Source: an uncultured Thermus sp.
Lineage (GTDB): Bacteria; Deinococcota; Deinococci; Deinococcales; Thermaceae
Assembly: GCA_947085095.1 (NCBI GenBank)
Contig: CAMTVD010000022.1
Location: 32,001 to 96,000, forward strand
Reading direction: 5' to 3'
DNA: 64,000 bases
Positions 3,309 to 10,652 of the stretch are shown here, one piece after another. The number at the start of each line of letters is the position of its first letter. Within the stretch, counting starts at the first letter, position 1. The translations under genes and the position numbers were made by a program. The notes under the pieces were generated by a model, which was given only the letters and a program-made list of their open reading frames with translations, was not told the origin of the DNA and did no database searches.

Positions 3309-3385
3309 CGGGGCGTAGCGCAGGCCGGTAGCGCACCTGCTTTGGGAGCAGGGGGTCGCCCGTTCAAATCGGGCCGCCCCGACCA
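3309..3385 (+). tRNA. tRNA-Pro (TGG)
   Basis: CGGGGCG/CGCCCCG acceptor stem, anticodon arm CCTGC-TTTGGGA-GCAGG, TTCAAAT T-loop, CCA end. Confidence 0.97.
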
Positions 3386-3386
3386 C

Positions 3387-3463
3387 GCGGGAGTAGCTCA
3401 GTTTGGTAGAGCATCGGCCTTCCAAGCCGAGGGTCGCGGGTTCGAGTCCCGTCTCCCGCTCCA
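3387..3463 (+). tRNA. tRNA-Gly (TCC)
   Basis: GCGGGAG/CTCCCGC acceptor stem, TCGGC-CTTCCAA-GCCGA anticodon arm, TTCGAGT, TCCA end. Confidence 0.97.
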
Positions 3464-3496
3464 CAAAGCCGGGGCTTTGGCCCCGGTGCCTTTCTT

Positions 3497-3572
3497 GGGC
3501 CCGTAGCTCAGGGGACAGAGCAGCCGCCTTCTAAGCGGTAGGTCGGGGGTTCGAATCCCTCCGGGCCCGCCA
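3497..3572 (+). tRNA. tRNA-Arg (TCT); integration target
   Basis: GGGCCCG/CGGGCCC acceptor stem, GCCGC-CTTCTAA-GCGGT anticodon arm, TTCGAAT, GCCA end. Confidence 0.97.
3527..3572 (+). repeat. attL (3' half of tRNA-Arg)
   Basis: CCTTCTAAGCGGTAGGTCGGGGGTTCGAATCCCTCCGGGCCCGCCA; 44/46 identical to 10453-10498. Confidence 0.95.
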
Positions 3573-3613
3573 CCTTCTGAAGGCAAAGCTTCCGCACTCG
3601 GAAGCTTAGGAAT

Positions 3614-3713
3614 GGGTCAAGCTGACCCCCATACTTGACCCCCAAAGGAAGGGCAAACCTCTCCCCCGGCCTCGAGGCCGGGGGGCGGTTTTGGGGGTCA
3701 GCTTTAGGGGTCA
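3614..3713. repeat. TGACCC(CC) repeats, left arm (putative integrase arm-type sites)
   Basis: Direct copies at 3623 and 3636; inverted copies at 3614, 3693 and 3707. Confidence 0.7.
3663..3692. terminator. Perfect 22-bp palindrome between tRNA operon and integrase; probable terminator
   Basis: CCCCCGGCCTCGAGGCCGGGGG followed by GCGGTTTT. Confidence 0.6.
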
Positions 3714-4853
3714 GGCCTGAGGCCTGGGGCCCGCCACCAGGTCCTCCGGGTCAAAGGTCCAGGCCTCCCTCTCCCGGGCCAGCAGGTGGCGGTAAATGTC
3801 CAGCGTGATGGAGGGCCGCGCATGGCCCAGGCGGGCCGCCACCACCTCCGGCGGTGCCCCTTCGGCCAGGAGCATGGAGGCGAAGGTGTGCCGGAGGTCG
3901 TGGGGCCGTATGGGGGGCAGGCCCACACGGGCCACAATCTTCCGAAGGGCGTGGGCCAGGCTATGGGGGTTGAGGGGCTGGGAGGGGTCCTTGGCGCTCG
4001 GGAACACCCAGGCCTCCCGAAGGTCCAGGGGGTCCATACCCGTTTCCACCAGGGCCTCCCACCGGGCCCGCAAGTGCTCCAGGGTCTTGGGGGGAACGGG
4101 AATGGTGCGCAGGCTGGAGGGGGTCTTGGGGGCGGTGAGAAGCCCTTTGCCTCCGAGGTTGGTCCAGGCCCGGCGCACGGCCAGGGTCCCCGCCCTAAAG
4201 TCCAGGTCCCCCCACTTGAGCCCCAGGGCCTCCCCAGGCCGGAGGCCCACCGCCAGGCAAAGGCGCAGGGCCGTGCCTACCTCCCAGGTGGGCCAGGCGT
4301 CCAGGGCCTGAAGGAGGGCGGCCACCTCGTGGGGCTCCAAGGTCCTCCCGGCGGTGCGGCGCGTGGGGGCCTCGAGGCGGATGGAGGCCGTGGGGTCCCG
4401 GTGCACGACTTCCAGGGCCAGGGCCTCCCTGAAGATGGCCCGCAAGTGGGTCAGCGCCTTGCGGATGGCCCTCGGGCCTAGCCCCTGGGCGGCCATGCGG
4501 TCCAAGGCCTCCCGGATATCGGCAGGCCTGATGGCCTGGAGCCGCTTTTCCCCCAAGTGGGCCAGGAGGTAGCCCACTTCCCGCTGGTAGTTGACGAAGG
4601 TCTTGGGGGCCAGGGTGGCCCGCTTGCGGGCAAGCCACCCTTCCGCGAAGGCGGCCAGGGTGGCGGCGCTCTTGGCGGGCAGGAGGCCTTTTTCGTGCTG
4701 GGCCACAAGCTCCCGCGCCTTGCGCAGGGCCTCCTCGGCAGTCTTGCCGAAGACGCTCACCCGCCTATACCGCCCATCGGGCTCCCGGAGGTAAGGGCGC
4801 ACCTCCCAGCGCCCATCCTTACGCTTGCGGGCCTTCAATCCTTTCTTGGGCAT
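3711..4853 (-). CDS. int: Tyrosine recombinase / site-specific integrase
   Basis: N-terminal arm-binding segment (RKDGRWEVR..FGKT); GLRPGEALGLKW, PKT, HDLRHTFAS, LGHARPSITLDIYRH; GGAGG before ATG 4853. Confidence 0.96.
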   Translation of the reverse strand: MPKKGLKARKRKDGRWEVRPYLREPDGRYRRVSVFGKTAEEALRKARELVAQHEKGLLPAKSAATLAAFAEGWLARKRATLAPKTFVNYQREVGYLLAHLGEKRLQAIRPADIREALDRMAAQGLGPRAIRKALTHLRAIFREALALEVVHRDPTASIRLEAPTRRTAGRTLEPHEVAALLQALDAWPTWEVGTALRLCLAVGLRPGEALGLKWGDLDFRAGTLAVRRAWTNLGGKGLLTAPKTPSSLRTIPVPPKTLEHLRARWEALVETGMDPLDLREAWVFPSAKDPSQPLNPHSLAHALRKIVARVGLPPIRPHDLRHTFASMLLAEGAPPEVVAARLGHARPSITLDIYRHLLAREREAWTFDPEDLVAGPRPQA

Positions 4854-4879
4854 AACCTCCTCTACCCTACCATTCCACG

Positions 4880-4990
4880 GGGGGGCGGCGTGGGCTTCGC
4901 GAAAGTTTTGTTTCGCGAAGGTTGCCGGGGGCAACCCGTCAACCCATGACGCGAAGGGGGAGTAGCCTGGGGGTTCGCCCCCGGGTTTTT
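4880..4990 (+). ncRNA. Candidate structured antisense RNA of the integrated element
   Basis: Possible TTGGGC-16-TACCAT promoter (4846-4873); four consecutive hairpins, the last with a TTCG loop followed by TTTTT. Confidence 0.35.
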
Positions 4991-5095
4991 CCCGGCGAAA
5001 GTTTGCGCCATTTCCCCCACGCTGAGGGGAAGGCTCCTCCCCCTCGTGTGGGGAAGGTTCTGGGGCTTTCTAGCCCTGCCGTTTTCCAAAGAGGG

Positions 5096-5377
5096 CTACC
5101 CCTCCTCGTCCAAGGGCCACTCCGCCGCGGTGAAGGAGAGGGGATGGGGCTCCGCCTTCGGCGCGGCGGCCAGGGCCAGCTTGAGGGCCAGGGCGGCCAC
5201 CCGGGCCTTGTGCTCCGGGTTGAGGCCTTCCGCCTCCTCCAGGGCCTTCTCCAGGACCGCCACGGCCTTGCCCCCAAGCCCGGCCAGGCGCGTGCGCCAG
5301 GCCTCGGCCTCCTCCCACCGGGCGCGGGCGGCCTCGTACCGCTCAGTCCACTTCGGCTTCGCCTTCGCCTTCCTCAT
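5096..5377 (-). CDS. Hypothetical small helical protein of the element
   Basis: MRKAKAKPKWTERYEAARARW...; GGAGGTGG before ATG; overlaps end of the upstream ORF. Confidence 0.65.
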   Translation of the reverse strand: MRKAKAKPKWTERYEAARARWEEAEAWRTRLAGLGGKAVAVLEKALEEAEGLNPEHKARVAALALKLALAAAPKAEPHPLSFTAAEWPLDEEG

Positions 5378-5912
5378 CTTCCACCTCCTTGAGCTTGAGC
5401 CCGGAGAAGAGGGCTTCCAGCGCCTTGCGGAAGTCTTTGCCCAGGTCCTCGGCCAGGGCCTCGGGGAAGGCCCGGAGGGCGTACCTCCCCCACATGGGCA
5501 GGCCAAGGTCCAGGGCCCGGTCCTTCCCCCCTCTCCGGGCCTGTGAGAGGTAGCCCAGGTGGGCGCACTTCCTGCAGAGGAGCCCCCGGTGGACCAGGTA
5601 GAGCACCCGGCGGTTCCCCCCGCACCCGGGGCAGACGAAGACCCACTCCACCCCGAAGGGGTGCCTCACCCCCTTTAGGCTCACCACTTGCTCCCCGAAG
5701 GCCAGGCAAACGGGCGGCCTCTCGGGGAGGGGGCGGCCCGTCTTCATCCGCCACCACTCCGCCAGCCACGCGGCCCAGATTTGGGGGGTTCGTTCGGCAA
5801 TCCCCTCCCAGGGCCTTCCCGGTCCCCTCCCCAGCCCGGGGAGAGGGCCGCGCCTTCCCGCCCCGAGGGCGGCCCTAAGCGCCAGGTCCAAGTCCCTGAT
5901 TTCCTCCATCAT
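5343..5912 (-). CDS. Hypothetical zinc-finger protein (CxxC...CxxC)
   Basis: WVFVCPGCGGNRRVLYL...CRKCAHLGYLSQ; Thermus-like codon usage. Confidence 0.75.
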   Translation of the reverse strand: MMEEIRDLDLALRAALGAGRRGPLPGLGRGPGRPWEGIAERTPQIWAAWLAEWWRMKTGRPLPERPPVCLAFGEQVVSLKGVRHPFGVEWVFVCPGCGGNRRVLYLVHRGLLCRKCAHLGYLSQARRGGKDRALDLGLPMWGRYALRAFPEALAEDLGKDFRKALEALFSGLKLKEVEDEEGEGEAEVD

Positions 5913-5937
5913 CGTCTAACCCCCATGCCGAACGGGC

Positions 5938-6273
5938 TTACGCCCCCACCTCCTCACGCCGCTTCACCCGGGCCCGGGCGATGGGCTCAAGCCGGGGCGG
6001 GTTCCCGGCCCAAACTCCCAGAAGCTCCACCTCCTGGGCTTCCGGCCAGGCCTCCTCCAGGAAGCTCAACCGCTCCACCAGCCAGGCCTCGAGGCTCGGG
6101 GCGTTCTGCCCAGGCCAGGCGGCGTGGGCCTCCAGGTCCTCCTCCTCCGGCATGGCCAGAGCCCAGTAGAGCACCCGGCCATCGGCCACCACCCGGACCT
6201 TAGGCGGGCGCATGGCGCGCACCTTGGCCGCGAGGTCCGGGGCCAGGGTGATGAGCTTCCGCCAGGGGCTCAC
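5938..6273 (-). CDS. Hypothetical protein of the element
   Basis: 111 aa; GTGA start/stop overlap with the helicase gene. Confidence 0.7.
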   Translation of the reverse strand: MSPWRKLITLAPDLAAKVRAMRPPKVRVVADGRVLYWALAMPEEEDLEAHAAWPGQNAPSLEAWLVERLSFLEEAWPEAQEVELLGVWAGNPPRLEPIARARVKRREEVGA

Positions 6274-8183
6274 AGCTCCACCTCCACCTCGTCCTCCTCT
6301 TCCCCCCGGGCCGTTTTAGAAAGAGGAGGGGCAACACCTCCCGCATCCCCCGCATCCCCCGCAAACGGCGTCCTGGAGCCGTTTAGTACGCGCGGGGGTT
6401 GTGCGGGGGTTGCGGGGGATTGCGGGGGTTGTGCGGGGGGTTGCGGGGGTTGCCCCTTCCATCCCCCGCGCTCAGGAGTGTCGTCCTGGAGCCGGGTTAC
6501 GGGGGTTGCGGGAGTTGCGGGGGATGCGCCGCTACTCCTTTCTAAAACCCAGAGGAGGCGCTTGACCCGGGCGTCCCGCACCCCCTCCACCTTCAGCCCC
6601 ACCCCCCGGAGGGCGGCCTGGACGCGGGGAAGATGTTTGCCCAGCCCGGCGGGGGTGCGGGGCCACCCTTCGGGCTTGACCCGGGCGTCCTTGAGGCCCA
6701 TCGCCTCCTCCAGGGCGGCCAAGAGTTCCGATGCGGAAAACACGGCCCGGTGCCCCTCCGGCCAGTCGGCGGTGAAGAGGAGGAGGGCCTGGGCCACGGG
6801 GTCGTTGTCCAGAAGGTCCTGGTTGAGCCCGGCCTGCACCGCGTAGAAGGCCGCCACCACCTCCCCGGCCTCAAGGCCCAGGGCGGGGGCGGCGGCCTCA
6901 GCCCAGATGGCCCAATCGGCTAGGCGGGGCAAGGAGGGCAGGGCCTTCCGCGCCACCTCCCAGCGCCTCAGGGCCAGGACCACGGCGTCCAGGAGGGCCC
7001 CCAGGGCCTGGGGGTGGGCCCGGGCAAAGGCCTCCCAAATCTCCCGTTCGGGGCGGCGCTCCCCGTCCTCCAGCCGCACCAGGTTGACCATCGCCACCCG
7101 GTCGGCCAAGTCGTCCCGGAGGATGCCGAAACCTATCCCCGTGAGGATGACGGGCCGTTGCGCCTCCAGGACGTGCTCTTCCGAGTCCGAGTAAAGCTCC
7201 CTCTTGCCCAGCCCGCCCCCGGTGGAAAGGCGGCATAGGGCGTCCGAAAGCCAGGTGGGTATCTTGGAAAGGTTGTCAAAGGCCAGTACCCAGGACCCCT
7301 TGGCGCCCACCATCAGCGCCTCCACGTCCTTGGGCTCAGCCCGTAGGGCGGCCTCCTGGGGGTCCACCAGGGCCTTGAGCACCCTCGCGGCGGTGCTCTT
7401 CCCCGCCCCCTTCTCCCCGGCCAGGACCAGGATGGGGTACGGGCCTTGAGGGGAGAGGGCCCCCACCAGCCACCCCAGGACCAGGGCCACGTCCCGGCGC
7501 TCCCTCAGGGGCAGGAGTTCCAGGAGGGGGGCTAGACTGCCGCCACGCTCAGGGAGGGGGAGGGGCTTCTGGTGCCGCCCCCGGCGGAAACGCACCGGGG
7601 CCTCATGGGCCGGGATGATGCGCCACCCCGAGGGGTCTACCTCCACCACGCTCCAATCGGGCCGGGCCAGGTCCAGGTACACCTTGCCCTCCCACCCGGC
7701 CAGGCGTGTGTGCACCTCGTGCTCCTCCCCCTCAAAGAGGGCCTTCGCCTCCAGGACGGCCAGGGCGTCTTGGAGGGCCTGGGCGTAGAGAGGCTTGCCC
7801 CTTTCCGCGTAGTAGAGCCCGGCGAGCCAGGTGCGAAACTCCTTGCCCCGCAGGGGATGATGCTCCACGTGCCCCTCCCGGGACAGGGTGGCCCAGGCCT
7901 CCTTGCTGGGGGTGTGCCAGAGCTTAGGGCCGGCCTTCAGGGCCAGGTCTACGGCGTCCTTGGCGGCGGTGGCGTCCTCCTTCTTGGGGCCCAAGAAGTC
8001 CTGCCAGGCCAGCCGCACCGCCTGCAGGGTGGCCCCCACCCGCTTGGCGGCCTCCCGCAAGACGGCTTCCGCCTCCACGGCGTCCAGGCCCGCCTCCACG
8101 ATGGCCTCAAAGAGGGACTGCCTGACCCGGCCCCAGTTCTCAGGGGCCAAGCCCTCCAAGATGGCGCGGATGGCCTCACTCAT
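6270..8183 (-). CDS. P-loop ATPase, probable replicative helicase
   Basis: Walker A GEKGAGKST, Walker B-like VLAFDN, RPVILTG, DLADR; directly downstream of Prim-Pol. Confidence 0.85.
   Translation of the reverse strand: MSEAIRAILEGLAPENWGRVRQSLFEAIVEAGLDAVEAEAVLREAAKRVGATLQAVRLAWQDFLGPKKEDATAAKDAVDLALKAGPKLWHTPSKEAWATLSREGHVEHHPLRGKEFRTWLAGLYYAERGKPLYAQALQDALAVLEAKALFEGEEHEVHTRLAGWEGKVYLDLARPDWSVVEVDPSGWRIIPAHEAPVRFRRGRHQKPLPLPERGGSLAPLLELLPLRERRDVALVLGWLVGALSPQGPYPILVLAGEKGAGKSTAARVLKALVDPQEAALRAEPKDVEALMVGAKGSWVLAFDNLSKIPTWLSDALCRLSTGGGLGKRELYSDSEEHVLEAQRPVILTGIGFGILRDDLADRVAMVNLVRLEDGERRPEREIWEAFARAHPQALGALLDAVVLALRRWEVARKALPSLPRLADWAIWAEAAAPALGLEAGEVVAAFYAVQAGLNQDLLDNDPVAQALLLFTADWPEGHRAVFSASELLAALEEAMGLKDARVKPEGWPRTPAGLGKHLPRVQAALRGVGLKVEGVRDARVKRLLWVLERSSGASPATPATPVTRLQDDTPERGGWKGQPPQPPAQPPQSPATPAQPPRVLNGSRTPFAGDAGDAGGVAPPLSKTARGEEEDEVEVEL
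6314..6547. repeat. Iteron-like (T)GCGGGGG repeat array; putative replication origin
   Basis: About a dozen GCGGGGG/CCCCCGC-type units in both orientations, bounded by inverted TTTTAGAAAG / CTTTCTAAAA. Confidence 0.65.
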
Positions 8184-9066
8184 GGGCCACCCCCTTCGCC
8201 CGGGCCCGGCGGTTCAAGGCCCAGCGCATCCGAGGGGGGAGGGGGTGAGGGTCCTCTAGGATGAGCGGCCTCGCCTCTCCTACCCTCAGCCCCCACCGCG
8301 CCGCATCCCGGGCCTCCCGCTCAGGTAGCCCGGCCCGCATAGCGGCGGCTACCAGGGCCTCTTCCGCCTCCTCCGGGGAGAGTCCATGGGGGATTAGCCC
8401 CCCCGCGGCCACGGCGTAACGGATGAGGGTGTTGTGCCTCTGCCCCTCCGGGGTGCGGGCCACTTGGGCGGCGTAGGCCTGGAGAAGGGCCTGCAGGCGC
8501 TTGGGGCTCGTCCCCCCCTCGGGAGTCCACACGCTCCTGGGAGGAGGAGGCGGCGGGGGGAGGAGCTTCAAGAGGAGGCCCCGGGGCACCGGGGGAAGCC
8601 CCTCCGGCCTCACCAGGGGCACCTCCCACTCGTAGCCCCTCCCGTCCTTGAGCCCGGTAGGCGCGGCCACCACATAAGCCCGACCCATGCCCCGGAGGTC
8701 TACCCCCTCCAAAACCCGCACGCTGGCGGAAAGCCTCACCCCCTCGGGAAGCCGGAGGAAAAGGTGTACCCCTCCCTTGGGAGTCCTTTGCCTTGGGGCG
8801 GCCTCGAGGGCGGGGTGCTCCTGCCTCAACCCCTCCCAGGCCGTGGGGTCGTCAAAGTCCAGGACCAAGACCCCCTCCGGGGCCAAGAGCCCCACCCCGG
8901 CCTCGGGGCAGGCCCGCCACCAGGCCTCGAGGGTGGCGGGGTCCTGGGAGGCCTCCTTGAGCCCGTGGGGCACCAGCCGGGGGTGGGGGCGCTTCTCCCC
9001 GGGGAGGAGGGGAAGGACGGCGTAGCCCAGACGGGCGTAGCCCAGGACGTGCTCAATCGGCCTCAT
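8176..9066 (-). CDS. Bifunctional DNA primase/polymerase (Prim-Pol) with C-terminal PriCT-like domain
   Basis: YARLGYAVLPL..EKRP, VLVLDFD, TPKGGVHLF, VDLRG..YVVAAP; poly-Pro linker; EGQRHNTL. Confidence 0.9.
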   Translation of the reverse strand: MRPIEHVLGYARLGYAVLPLLPGEKRPHPRLVPHGLKEASQDPATLEAWWRACPEAGVGLLAPEGVLVLDFDDPTAWEGLRQEHPALEAAPRQRTPKGGVHLFLRLPEGVRLSASVRVLEGVDLRGMGRAYVVAAPTGLKDGRGYEWEVPLVRPEGLPPVPRGLLLKLLPPPPPPPRSVWTPEGGTSPKRLQALLQAYAAQVARTPEGQRHNTLIRYAVAAGGLIPHGLSPEEAEEALVAAAMRAGLPEREARDAARWGLRVGEARPLILEDPHPLPPRMRWALNRRARAKGVAHE

Positions 9067-9247
9067 TACTCACCTCCTCCTCCTGGGCCAGGGCCGCATC
9101 AATGAGGAGGTCAATGCGCTTGCGGGCGTCAATGCGCTCCCCCCAGGGAAGGGCCAGGAAGATAGCTTGAAAAGCGTCTAGCAAGATGGCGGTTTCCTCT
9201 TTGGCCCCCTCGGGCGTTATGATGACCACAACGGCACGCACGGCCAC
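9053..9247 (-). CDS. Small hypothetical protein
   Basis: 64 aa packed between xis-like and Prim-Pol genes; carries the Prim-Pol RBS (GGAGGTGA). Confidence 0.55.
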   Translation of the reverse strand: MAVRAVVVIITPEGAKEETAILLDAFQAIFLALPWGERIDARKRIDLLIDAALAQEEEVSNEAD

Positions 9248-9250
9248 CCC

Positions 9251-9457
9251 CTACCGCCCCCGAGGCCCCCCCTCGGGGCTCGCCTCCTCGTCCAGGGGCA
9301 TCCCCAGCAGGCGCTCCAGCTCCTTCCTGGGGATGATGAGCCTCGCCCCCAGGCGGGCCGCCCTCAGCTCCCCCCGCCAGACCAGCCGATAAATGTGGTT
9401 TGGATGGACTCCAAGTGCCGAAGCCGCTTCCTTGACGCTCAGTCCAAGCTTACGCAT
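9251..9457 (-). CDS. Excisionase/AlpA-like helix-turn-helix protein
   Basis: LSVKEAASALGVHPNHIYRLVWRGELRAARLGARLIIPRKELERLL is a typical excisionase-family wHTH. Confidence 0.88.
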   Translation of the reverse strand: MRKLGLSVKEAASALGVHPNHIYRLVWRGELRAARLGARLIIPRKELERLLGMPLDEEASPEGGPRGR

Positions 9458-9536
9458 GTTTTTGCCCCGCTTTTCCGCGCCCAGGGAGGGGCACCCTGGA
9501 CGGGCCTGACGACCTAAAGCCGCAAAACCTACGGCT

Positions 9537-10205
9537 TCAGGCCGCCAGGGGCGGGGCAACAGGGGCGATGACCAGGCTTCGGGTCAGGTTTTGCGTGGGG
9601 TCTTTTGGCGGTGCCCTTTCCTGGTAGCTTTCGGAAAGGGTCTTCTGGGGTTCGTGAGTCAGGCGGATGAGGTCAAAGACCAGAATAAGGAGCGCGCTCA
9701 GAGCTTTAAGTGCGGCTTTAAGAGCTTCGTTAAGCGTCTTGCCGCGCCTTAGGCTCTGCAGGTAAACGAAGAAGAGCTTAAGCACCCGCTCATGGGGCAA
9801 CCTCCGGAAGCGGATCCGCGTCCCCCCGCGCTTGGCGGCCCTCCCCCTGAAGAAAACACCTTGAGCAAGGTGCCGCCCTACTAAAGAGAGGTAGTTCAAT
9901 AGAGGCCTAAGTGCCTCAAAAAGGTTATCCCGCGCGTCTTGCAGACTTCTGATTACAGCCCCTGCCTCTCCGGCCAGGGGGGCCATCGCCTCAAGTGTCT
10001 GGTGTAGCGTCCTCCTGGCGGGTTCCGCCGCCTTAAGTGCCTGGTGTAGAGTCCTCCTAGCGGTTTCCACCGCCTCGTTAAGGTTCCTTAAGGTTTCCTG
10101 GGGAAGGGTCCAGGTGGCGGCGTAGGCCTCAACAGAGGCCTGAAGGTTCCTCACGGCTTCGCTTTGGGCGAAGTGTTGTAGCTTGGCCGTGAGTCCCCCT
10201 TGCAT
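9537..10205 (-). CDS. Hypothetical protein, first gene of the element operon; atypical composition
   Basis: 222-aa ORF with its own promoter; internal ARRTLHQ duplication. Confidence 0.7.
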   Translation of the reverse strand: MQGGLTAKLQHFAQSEAVRNLQASVEAYAATWTLPQETLRNLNEAVETARRTLHQALKAAEPARRTLHQTLEAMAPLAGEAGAVIRSLQDARDNLFEALRPLLNYLSLVGRHLAQGVFFRGRAAKRGGTRIRFRRLPHERVLKLFFVYLQSLRRGKTLNEALKAALKALSALLILVFDLIRLTHEPQKTLSESYQERAPPKDPTQNLTRSLVIAPVAPPLAA

Positions 10206-10214
10206 CTTGCCCCT

Positions 10215-10243
10215 ACCATAGCACGCCCCCTCTTCACTCGCAA
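10215..10243 (-). promoter_or_regulatory. Sigma-A promoter driving the element operon
   Basis: Minus strand TTGCGA-17nt-TATGGT with TG extension, 9 nt before ATG 10205. Confidence 0.65.
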
Positions 10244-10310
10244 TACCATGACATCACCCCACAAAACCTTTTCTTGCAAAGGGTTCTTTTCGTGGGATAG
10301 CTTCACGGGT

Positions 10311-10353
10311 TGACCCCCAAACTTGACCCCCATTGACCCCCAAAACTGACCCC
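10311..10353. repeat. Four direct TGACCCC repeats, right arm (putative arm-type sites)
   Basis: Copies at 10311, 10324, 10334 and 10347. Confidence 0.75.
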
Positions 10354-10452
10354 TAACCGGAGGTAATCCAAGGTAATGCCATCCCGGGGAAAACGCGTGT
10401 AGGACGCCGATTTTTGCAATAACGGGTTATCGGAGGTTAGGGGTCTTCGCCT

Positions 10453-10498
10453 CCTTCTAAGCGGTAGGTCGGGGGTTCAAATCCCTCCGGGCCCACCA
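10453..10498 (+). repeat. attR (displaced tRNA-Arg 3' half)
   Basis: CCTTCTAAGCGGTAGGTCGGGGGTTCAAATCCCTCCGGGCCCACCA. Confidence 0.95.
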
Positions 10499-10652
10499 GG
10501 TCAGGGACGCAAAACTTTACCCCTCGGTAGCGTGGCCGGGGGTGCTTTGCTGGTGGAAGGCCTCCCCCAGGAGGGCTGGTCTGGCTGGGGAAGGGGCGTT
10601 TGTAGCTTGCGAGCCCTTGCCCCAAGGGGTAGGCTTGCGGGTGGAGGTTGGT

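Follow-up and report, generated by a model that had tools for sequence, protein, structure and literature searches.

A 6.9-kb insertion in a tRNA-Arg(TCT) gene is an intact mobile element

The window analyzed here, 64,000 nucleotides of contig CAMTVD010000022.1 from a metagenome-assembled genome (MAG) of an uncultured Thermus sp. (GCA_947085095.1), carries a 6,926-bp insertion in a tRNA-Arg(TCT) gene which, by its anatomy and open frames, is an intact mobile element. It is very probably an intact member of the ICETh2-like family of tRNA-integrated Thermus elements and represents a tRNA-Arg(TCT)-specific lineage of that family. New here are its tRNA-Arg(TCT) specificity, its minimal size, arm sites peculiar to the lineage, an iteron cluster as candidate origin and an apparent mosaic of three donors.

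The tRNA cluster at 3309-3572 runs from tRNA-Pro through tRNA-Gly to an intact plus-strand tRNA-Arg(TCT) at 3497-3572 (ARAGORN; Rfam tRNA model, 69.7 bits), and an Rfam scan of the window returned tRNAs only. A repeat search found the 3' 46 nucleotides of this tRNA (attL, plus strand, 3527-3572) again at 10453-10498 of the same strand, as a displaced tRNA-Arg 3' fragment (attR) followed by a native-type flank. The two copies are identical at 44 of 46 positions. One mismatch falls in the T-loop and the other on the discriminator base, whereas the first 26 bp, a stretch spanning the anticodon loop, agree throughout. An earlier annotation made from the letters of this DNA alone (the sequence-only reading) had described 46-bp att repeats; the repeats are real but not perfect. 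Both lie within an 83-nucleotide direct repeat (3523-3605 and 10449-10531, 81% identical, spacing 6,926 bp) that also includes an element-borne copy of the hairpin following the tRNA (plus strand, 3573-3605, GCTTCCG-CACT-CGGAAGC). At least nine other genomes have, immediately behind their intact tRNA, DNA similar to the flank at 10499-10538, and the 3' 46-mer at 3527-3572 recurs unchanged in 24 of 29 further Thermus loci. In G019, G012 and G011 the native allele has the A seen in the attR T-loop, as would be expected if attR is the original host 3' end, now displaced, and attL came in with the element.

Nine open reading frames (ORFs) lie between the att copies, all on the minus strand, with the gene order running from attR to attL. 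Family searches identify an integrase, an HTH_17/excisionase protein (Xis) and a Prim-Pol (Ppol). A fourth gene encodes a 637-residue P-loop protein, called Hel below, for which no model scored above its cut-off, and the remaining five ORFs (o222, o64, o111, o189 and o136) have no family match in Pfam, PHROGs, NCBIfam or PADLOC. Ten ORFs were scanned against Pfam and PHROGs and nine against NCBIfam and PADLOC; among the element ORFs these four libraries revealed no capsid, tail, terminase, lysis, relaxase or type IV secretion system (T4SS) family. PADLOC gave no defense family at a meaningful score in the nine ORFs, returning two sub-threshold matches only, and no plus-strand ORF of at least 55 residues within the element has a family match. 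None of the nine frames is interrupted or shortened when compared with its homologues in three other elements. Most of the structural description in the sequence-only reading is borne out by these results: nine co-oriented ORFs in the order it gave, intact frames, no structural, lysis or transfer genes, no divergent repressor, and arm-type repeats inside both ends.

The element shares its architecture with ICETh2

ICETh2 of T. thermophilus HB27 is an 11,276-bp element at tRNA-Val with 47-nucleotide att repeats and encodes Int2, Exc2, Hel and Ppol, the last being the commercial TthPrimPol (PMC7693054, PMC9751324). Its excision frequency is 1e-4 to 1e-5, UV induces the element 5-7-fold, and Int2 mediates its integration (PMC7693054, PMC9751324). 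Despite its name it is non-self-conjugative and in HB27 depends on ICETh1 (PMC7693054), the excised form being moved by transjugation or by constitutive-competence uptake (PMC7693054, PMC9751324). Homologues of 7.6-8.7 kb have been reported in T. aquaticus Y51MC23, T. oshimai JL-2 and T. thermophilus SG0.5JP17-16 (PMC7693054).

ICETh2-like elements have been delimited by a Ppol of at least 40% identity and at least 60% coverage, a Hel within 10 kb, an Int2 homologue of at least 40% identity within 20 kb, and a tRNA with a 45-50-bp 3' repeat (PMC7693054). Compared by proxy, the Ppol of the window shares 83% identity with its T. oshimai JL-2 counterpart (88% coverage) and 78% with that of T. thermophilus SG0.5JP17-16 (92% coverage), and the T. 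oshimai Ppol is in turn 83% identical to that of HB27 (PMC7693054). The Hel gene lies directly beside ppol. Across 98% of its length, Hel shares 59% identity with Theos_1692 of T. oshimai JL-2, which we assume to be the Hel homologue of that study. As a stand-in for Int2 we used the integrase of a T. arciformis tRNA-Val(CAC) element whose Ppol-Hel pair is 97-98% identical to that of the window; the identity of 40% is borderline relative to the 40% threshold. A tRNA with a 3' repeat is present, the tRNA being Arg(TCT) and not Val.

The layout is otherwise that of ICETh2: an integrase gene beside an intact tRNA, a tRNA 3' repeat at the far side (45-50 bp in the ICETh2 family), an excisionase, a Prim-Pol gene followed by hel, conserved small ORFs downstream of hel, and no conjugation genes. 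Relaxase, coupling protein, T4SS and TraB/FtsK-type translocase families were all absent from the element ORFs in Pfam, PHROGs and NCBIfam, so the element is not of the self-transmissible integrative and conjugative element (ICE) type. In contrast to ICETh2 and its homologues it measures 6.9 kb instead of 7.6-11.3 kb and lacks peptidase, transposase and toxin-antitoxin cargo. It also differs from ICETh2 in its target, tRNA-Arg(TCT) instead of tRNA-Val, in having its own arm-site motif and in its first gene, o222, which is confined to the Arg lineage.

Integrated elements of 6-15 kb with int, ppol and helicase genes at tRNAs are reported to be widespread across Thermus; the Cas12r-CRISPR spacers of Lalka phages are directed mainly at these elements, which might behave as Lalka satellites (10.64898/2026.04.20.719267). 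The window element fits this anatomy, with an integrase by a tRNA, attR 6.9 kb away, and a Prim-Pol together with a superfamily 3 (SF3) helicase. It resembles the Lalka-targeted elements in its partial tRNA copy (42-46 bp in those elements), its ppol and helicase genes and its size within 6-15 kb, and differs in an integrase that, at 45.5% identity to that of Lalka, is not 'very similar' to it (10.64898/2026.04.20.719267). The two-enzyme replication module of Prim-Pol and SF3 helicase is the one also found in SCCmec Cch, phage NrS-1 and archaeal and bacterial plasmids and integrated elements with archaeo-eukaryotic primases (AEP) (PMC5862659); unlike in those replicons, Prim-Pol and Hel are here separate genes, coupled to a tRNA-specific integrase and excisionase in a thermophilic bacterium. 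Given the ICETh2 experiments and the 2026 preprint, the statement in the sequence-only reading that no such element is characterized in Thermus does not hold, as ICETh2 and the Lalka-targeted elements have the same architecture. The main text of that preprint nowhere contains the term 'tRNA-Arg' (10.64898/2026.04.20.719267), and a literature search judged by paper titles turned up no study of an element at tRNA-Arg in Thermus.

The integrase is accompanied by lineage-specific arm-type sites

The tyrosine integrase gene (3711-4934, minus strand) ends 139 bp past the tRNA on the opposite strand. Its product matches PF00589 (7.6e-29) as well as Phage_int_M and SAM-like domains, and phrog_1 (2.4e-78); translation probably starts at the ATG at 4853 (MPKKGL...). 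The integrase is 100% identical to its counterpart in G004, 87% to that of an Arg-type element of T. arciformis and 40% to that of the Val-type element of the same species, and its closest phage integrase is that of Lalka27a (45.5%). The Xis gene (9251-9559, minus strand, probable start at the ATG at 9457) encodes a helix-turn-helix (HTH) DNA-binding protein of the HTH_17/excisionase family (PF12728, 1.4e-13; TIGR01764, 4.2e-11; phrog_66), with a TIGR01764 score of 43 bits against a cut-off of 28.8.

A repeat search revealed eight arm-type sites inside the two ends. The left group (3623-3713) comprises two direct and two inverted copies, TGACCCCCA / TAGGGGTCA, and the right group (10311-10355) four direct copies of TGACCCC(C/T)A. 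The TGACCCCCA sites are kept in both of the other Arg-type elements compared (L010 and L011, integrases 87-100% identical) and are absent from the tRNA-Val-type element L009 (integrase 40% identical). The sites hence co-vary with integrase type, which fits a putative role in binding the integrase or Xis at the arms. On this comparison, the element is a member of a tRNA-Arg(TCT) integrase lineage with its own putative TGACCCCCA arm sites.

The HTH of Xis is also 45% identical over 51 residues to the early transcriptional regulator of Lalka.

Hel is predicted to be an SF3 helicase with a candidate origin under its own coding end

The hel gene (6270-8183, minus strand) starts 8 bp before the end of ppol and encodes a protein with the Walker A motif GEKGAGKST that reaches the cut-off of no Pfam model. 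An AlphaFold2 model built from a 32-sequence alignment has a mean predicted local distance difference test (pLDDT) score of 82. Foldseek searches with this model returned the PrimPol of African swine fever virus (E 3e-10), the SaPI5 primase-helicase (E 2.4e-8, TM score 0.56 on the target), SCCmec Cch, NrS-1 and poxvirus D5/E5, with a probability of 1.00 for 8iqi, 7ola, 5dgk, 6lrb and 8hwh. The predicted fold of Hel is that of an SF3 replicative helicase of the D5/SaPI-Rep/Cch type, an assignment that is new here. Residues G259, K262, D303 and N304 are invariant across the 32 sequences, and the C-terminal 84 residues (554-637) are predicted to be disordered. At least 3,180 homologues at E <=1e-5 were found among 8,000 scored, often fused to Prim-Pol and PriCT domains. 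Sequence searches of the PDB returned nothing for Ppol and P-loop noise only for Hel.

Ppol (8176-9066, minus strand) matches the Prim-Pol (AEP) family PF09250 (4.8e-30) and is 92% identical to a T. scotoductus protein. Its translation carries LDFDD, GGVHLF and DLRG, which we take to be the Prim-Pol motifs, LDFDD holding the DxD.

The hel 3' end also holds a candidate replication origin (6313-6548), identified by a motif scan as GCGGGGGWT iterons in both orientations within an imperfect palindrome with 65-nucleotide arms (inverted repeats I1, I4, I5 and I8). Nine of the 12 matches to GCGGGGGWT in the window fall within 180 bp (6345-6525), compared with 4.3 expected for all 64 kb. The candidate origin underlies the DNA encoding the disordered tail of Hel. 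Iteron clusters are present at the hel 3' end in L009, L010 and L011 (8, 10 and 10 copies; Hel at least 84% identical) and absent from all four loci with Hel at most 67% identical (L012-L015). The iteron palindrome thus co-varies with Hel and is a candidate for its cognate origin. The words 'iteron' and 'origin of replication' are absent from the main text of the ICETh2 paper (PMC7693054).

In the phages Lalka27a and Lalka8, a small 'primase' gene adjoins the gene for a DnaB-like helicase; residues 176-263 of Ppol are 39-40% identical to its product.

tRNA-Arg(TCT) is an integration hotspot and the element is an apparent mosaic

Each of the 32 Thermus species genomes searched has the tRNA-Pro/Gly/Arg cluster. 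In 7 of 30 Thermus loci, the window included, tRNA-Arg(TCT) is directly followed by an integrase or a fragment of one (43-100% identity), marking this tRNA as a recurrent integration hotspot. The source MAG (G000) and its two nearest relatives by the flanking acyl-CoA dehydrogenase gene (G005 and G019, 93%) carry inserts of 6.9, 13.3 and ~2.3 kb, respectively, between tRNA-Arg(TCT) and that gene, those of the two relatives being different DNA that also bears an integrase. Hel homologues were found in 6 of the 31 other Thermus species genomes. Related elements with perfect 44-bp att repeats occupy tRNA-Arg in G004 (7,206 bp), G005 (13,322 bp) and T. arciformis CGMCC 1.6992 (G006; 6,897 bp), the last of which carries another at tRNA-Val(CAC) (7,913 bp). 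A search for conserved synteny of the ORF set at tRNA loci, proposed in the sequence-only reading, found a 6.9-7.9-kb set recurring in G004 and twice in T. arciformis. A scan of genome contigs returned the two T. arciformis loci only. Decayed relatives were also observed beside tRNA-Arg(TCT): the G019 integrase (L057, 71% identical) lacks its first ~100 residues, and G024 (L073) retains an 80-residue integrase fragment.

Compared in 100-bp bins, the element divides into blocks that are nearly identical to different relatives. Its two outer segments match the G004 element (3580-5880 and 8780-10450, each 98-100% per bin and mostly 100%). Between them, 5880-6380 matches the Arg-type element of T. 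arciformis (99-100%) and 6380-8980 the Val-type element (96-100% per bin; 98.7% over 6281-9004). By comparison, the left flank in the chromosome shares only 66-92% identity with the G004 and T. arciformis genomes, and the neighboring gene 82% and 86%, respectively. Near-identical blocks between diverged flanks indicate that the blocks are far younger than the host genomes. This sequence comparison implies recent horizontal transfer across species together with exchange of modules, in which the Hel-Ppol-origin segment would have been swapped between elements with different integrases.

The element likely moves with the help of functions encoded elsewhere

The anatomy of the element suggests the following cycle. 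The integrase would bind the att core and the TGACCCCCA arm sites and, together with the HTH_17 excisionase, recombine attL with attR in the 26-bp identical stretch, freeing a 6.9-kb circle and restoring the tRNA. Hel would recognize the iteron palindrome under its own 3' coding end and, with Ppol, prime and drive replication of the circle. As the element encodes no transfer or packaging functions, it would spread via host or foreign machinery, and the integrase would then reinsert it at a tRNA-Arg(TCT) gene, the element supplying a new tRNA 3' half. We infer excision, replication and transfer by analogy with the HB27 ICETh2 experiments. Natural transformation or transjugation is a serious candidate for the transfer route, falling just short of an even chance, while packaging by a helper phage is considerably less probable; the remaining weight lies with an undecided route or an immobile element.

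Several observations weigh against an active ICETh2-like element. The public-data check for excision, which covered Logan contigs, gave no sign of excision or replication, the element having a depth of 758-1,020 in the probable source run, equal to that of the flank (~830). Two att-to-att joints (3560>10469 in X16 and 3561>10457 in X6) have sides of 20-21 letters and are unreliable. Two further joints considered as attP (9278>3527 in X15 and 10485>3663 in X6) were rejected because their geometry is wrong. The integrase shares only 40% identity with one of the tRNA-Val type, and attR departs from attL at 2 of 46 positions. The MAG, which is 93% complete, has one FtsK_SpoIIIE/DUF87 locus (a 910-residue ORF, presumably FtsK), so that with these two families searched no TdtA-like or ICETh1-like donor system was detected. 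In HB27, excised ICETh2 barely replicates, Ppol is dispensable for copy number, and Ppol acts as a barrier to transformation in genetic interaction with AddAB (PMC7693054, PMC9751324). These copy-number and transformation data leave the role as a 'replicon' unproven for the ICETh2 family. Finally, the window comes from a MAG, and Logan contigs end at 5766-5893, 6623-6652, 7878-7907 and 8884-8913, near the joins of the mosaic.

A possible phage satellite, and other alternatives

The sequence-only reading had offered two alternatives, a satellite dependent on a helper phage or an integrative plasmid spread by transformation. The core on which this rested, int, xis, Prim-Pol and helicase without structural genes, is confirmed, while hallmarks of phage-inducible chromosomal islands (PICIs) beyond int, xis and rep were not found. 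Like PICIs and the Staphylococcus aureus pathogenicity islands (SaPIs), the element has an integrase, an HTH protein for excision and a protein with the SF3 primase-helicase fold (7ola), and no structural genes; its replication initiator is accompanied by a candidate origin. SaPIs likewise have an iteron origin in the 3' terminal part of their helicase gene, matching the placement of the candidate origin in hel. Unlike SaPIs and PICIs, the element has no Stl-like divergent repressor, no genes for a small terminase (TerS) or capsid remodeling and no known helper, and it differs from PICIs in being about half their size and in encoding its primase as a separate AEP Prim-Pol protein. Searches of Pfam and PHROGs gave no match to packaging or capsid-redirection genes of PICIs, and five ORFs are without a family. 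Lacking a divergent repressor, TerS, a capsid-remodeling gene and a shared cos or pac site, the satellite label is a hypothesis and not a finding.

A true satellite would excise, replicate via Hel and Ppol and be packaged by a Lalka-like helper or by a prophage on contig C3 of the same MAG, which would explain the spread between species. We consider this unlikely, about as probable as packaging by a helper phage in general. The absence of transfer genes, a size equal to ~9.7% of the 71,251-bp Lalka27a genome, the fold shared by Hel and the SaPI5 primase-helicase and the 45.5% identity to the closest phage integrase, that of Lalka27a, are all consistent with it. So is the proposal that the elements with int, ppol and helicase at tRNAs, to which most Lalka Cas12r spacers match, are satellites (10.64898/2026.04.20.719267). 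The C3 prophage has genes for a large terminase (TerL), portal, protease, major capsid protein (MCP), sheath, tape-measure protein (TMP) and baseplate, and an integrase 67% identical to that of Lalka27a, and one Lalka-type spacer from IMG/VR matches this integrase gene with 2 mismatches next to an AGG. Set against this, none of 13 Lalka-type spacers (6 from Lalka8, 1 from Lalka27a and 6 from an IMG/VR-JGI contig, together 13 of the 25 published unique spacers) matches the window element with 5 or fewer mismatches, and the sole match has 6 and lies in a conserved integrase catalytic motif. No TerS, capsid-size, interference or divergent repressor gene was recognized, and, apart from integrase homology, the element has no DNA in common with Lalka27a, Lalka8 or the C3 prophage, leaving no candidate for a shared cos or pac site. 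Element depth equals chromosome depth in the source sample. No satellite of this family has been demonstrated experimentally, and a literature search for a 'phage satellite' in Thermus returned one preprint only (10.64898/2026.04.20.719267). In addition, a megablast search of the element against 50,697 phage records matched only the tRNA-Arg of phage phiLo, and none of the 21 host spacers from four CRISPR arrays in this MAG has a match in the element, in its relatives or in the Lalka genomes. It is less probable still that the element is a minimal satellite, the smallest of a thermophile-specific family that hijacks Lalka-like or other Thermus myoviruses without a recognizable packaging or capsid-remodeling gene; if so, one or more of o222, o64, o111, o189 and o136 would be a new factor for helper sensing or redirection of packaging.

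The mosaic could also have been produced by the assembler joining co-occurring elements, the real element being, for instance, wholly G004-like. The MAG origin of the window, which is contained in metagenomic runs only, and the Logan contig ends at or near the joins allow for this, as does an integrase gene at tRNA-Val(CAC) of the same MAG that lies close to a contig end and may belong to an incompletely assembled Val-type element. Depth, however, is uniform over the eight tiling Logan contigs (758-1,020), with no doubling at shared junction segments, and hel is single-copy in the MAG, which together favor a real mosaic. Run X6 of an independent study likewise contains both the backbone and the Val-type hel segment at 99% or more, without bridging contigs. 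We hold an artefact to be improbable, and it would touch the mosaic claim only and not the identity of the element. A similarly low probability attaches to the element being a host-retained island for defense or DNA maintenance, in which Ppol, with Hel, limits incoming DNA or aids replication restart and mobility is secondary. Loss of Ppol in HB27 raises transformability 100-1000-fold, every HB27 ppol mutant gained loss-of-function mutations in addAB, and ICETh2 copy number is independent of Ppol (PMC7693054, PMC9751324). Against such an island stand the lack of meaningful PADLOC scores, the presence of Hel homologues in only 6 of 31 other species genomes, and the 98-100% blocks next to 66-92% flanks with module exchange, which argue for active mobility over domestication; such an island is nevertheless compatible with an ICETh2-like mobile element. 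Least probable of all is decay from a larger prophage or ICE, in which the loss of structural or transfer genes would have left the element as an inactive remnant. The two attR mismatches, the decayed relatives at the same site (the truncated G019 integrase and the 80-residue fragment in G024) and the lack of an excision signal in Logan contigs would fit decay, yet nine open frames are full-length compared with homologues in three elements, the compact set of 6.9-7.9 kb occurs once more in G004 and two times in T. arciformis, in each case flanked by perfect 44-bp att repeats, and near-identity across species points to recent transfer. The gene set was not found within a complete prophage, the Lalka genomes sharing only int, an HTH and the C-terminal segment of Ppol.

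As an ICETh2-like element, the insertion belongs to the family that is the source of TthPrimPol and that is central to the proposed conflict between phages and elements in Thermus. It is a near-minimal copy with nine genes, no cargo and separable modules (Int/Xis/arm sites and Hel/Ppol/iterons), and its 98-100% blocks shared with elements of other species would make it a convenient test object in which the candidate origin and arm sites are concrete testable sequences. If borne out on single molecules, the apparent swapping of replication modules by elements at tRNA-Arg and at tRNA-Val would illustrate how this family diversifies. No textbook view is altered by the element.

Small ORFs and a weak promoter

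The first gene of the operon, o222 (9537-10205, minus strand), has a single representative, 93% identical, among 1.84 billion proteins and, in the elements compared, is confined to Arg-type elements (72-100% identity). An internal tandem duplication of 42 bp (9978-10061, 81% identical, repeat D19) encodes a repeated RRTLHQ(A/T)L... peptide. The small acidic protein o64 (9053-9247, minus strand) is 98-100% conserved in L010 and L011. Downstream of hel, o111 (5938-6273, minus strand) is identical in the T. arciformis Arg-type element, 92% identical in G004 and 79% in G005. The zinc-ribbon-like o189 (5343-5912, minus strand, CxxC...CxxC) has 8 homologue clusters only (45-90% identity); in an alignment of 8 sequences the first CPxC pair is invariant and the second is missing from two gapped sequences. 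Its AlphaFold2 model has a pLDDT of 60.6 and gave no meaningful fold match (best VIA Z 3.4; best BFVD E 0.15), and the ESM Atlas held nothing usable for o222 or o189. The last of the small ORFs, o136 (5096-5506, minus strand), is conserved in L009, L010 and L011 (52-99%) and probably starts at an internal ATG at 5377, giving 93 residues.

Upstream of o222, the promoter proposed in the sequence-only reading corresponds to a weak sigma-70-like match read by eye (10243-10215, minus strand, TTGCGA - 17 nucleotides - TATGGT). A consensus scan found no promoter at threshold, including at 10215-10243. Lying 9 nucleotides before the o222 ATG, such a promoter would give a near-leaderless mRNA. Contigs from RNA libraries (X15 and X16) cover only ~6338-8434 at 95-98% identity and are not evidence of transcription.

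Other mobile DNA in the same MAG

A second Prim-Pol element of 7,755 bp (C21:20120-27951, L085) is integrated at tRNA-Val(TAC) of the source MAG, with an att copy that has 6 mismatches. Its Prim-Pol is 53% and its integrase 40% identical to those of the window element, and a 581-residue ATPase with AAA_16 and winged HTH (wHTH) domains replaces Hel. This ATPase is similar to Hel over the first ~63 residues only (30% identity), and the common segment may serve for docking of Ppol.

The prophage on contig C3 (C3:1-29438, L086 and L087) is near-complete and of myovirus type, and also carries an S24 LexA-like repressor, a UvrD-like helicase and DUF4326. The target of the Lalka-type IMG/VR spacer in its integrase lies at C3:399-430, preceded by AGG. 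No homologue of the Lalka MCP, portal or TerL was found in the MAG. The tyrosine integrase gene beside tRNA-Val(CAC) is located at C28:1423-2675, where the contig ends 1.4 kb upstream. A further tyrosine integrase (C15:17365-21415, 32% identical) is accompanied by an HTH_17-like gene and a LexA-like regulator 48% identical to that of Lalka27a. In addition, C2:57298-60282 encodes homologues (29-40%) of the vWA-domain protein, the hypothetical protein gp13 and the AAA-ATPase of Lalka27a, whose genes sit between the head and terminase genes of that phage.

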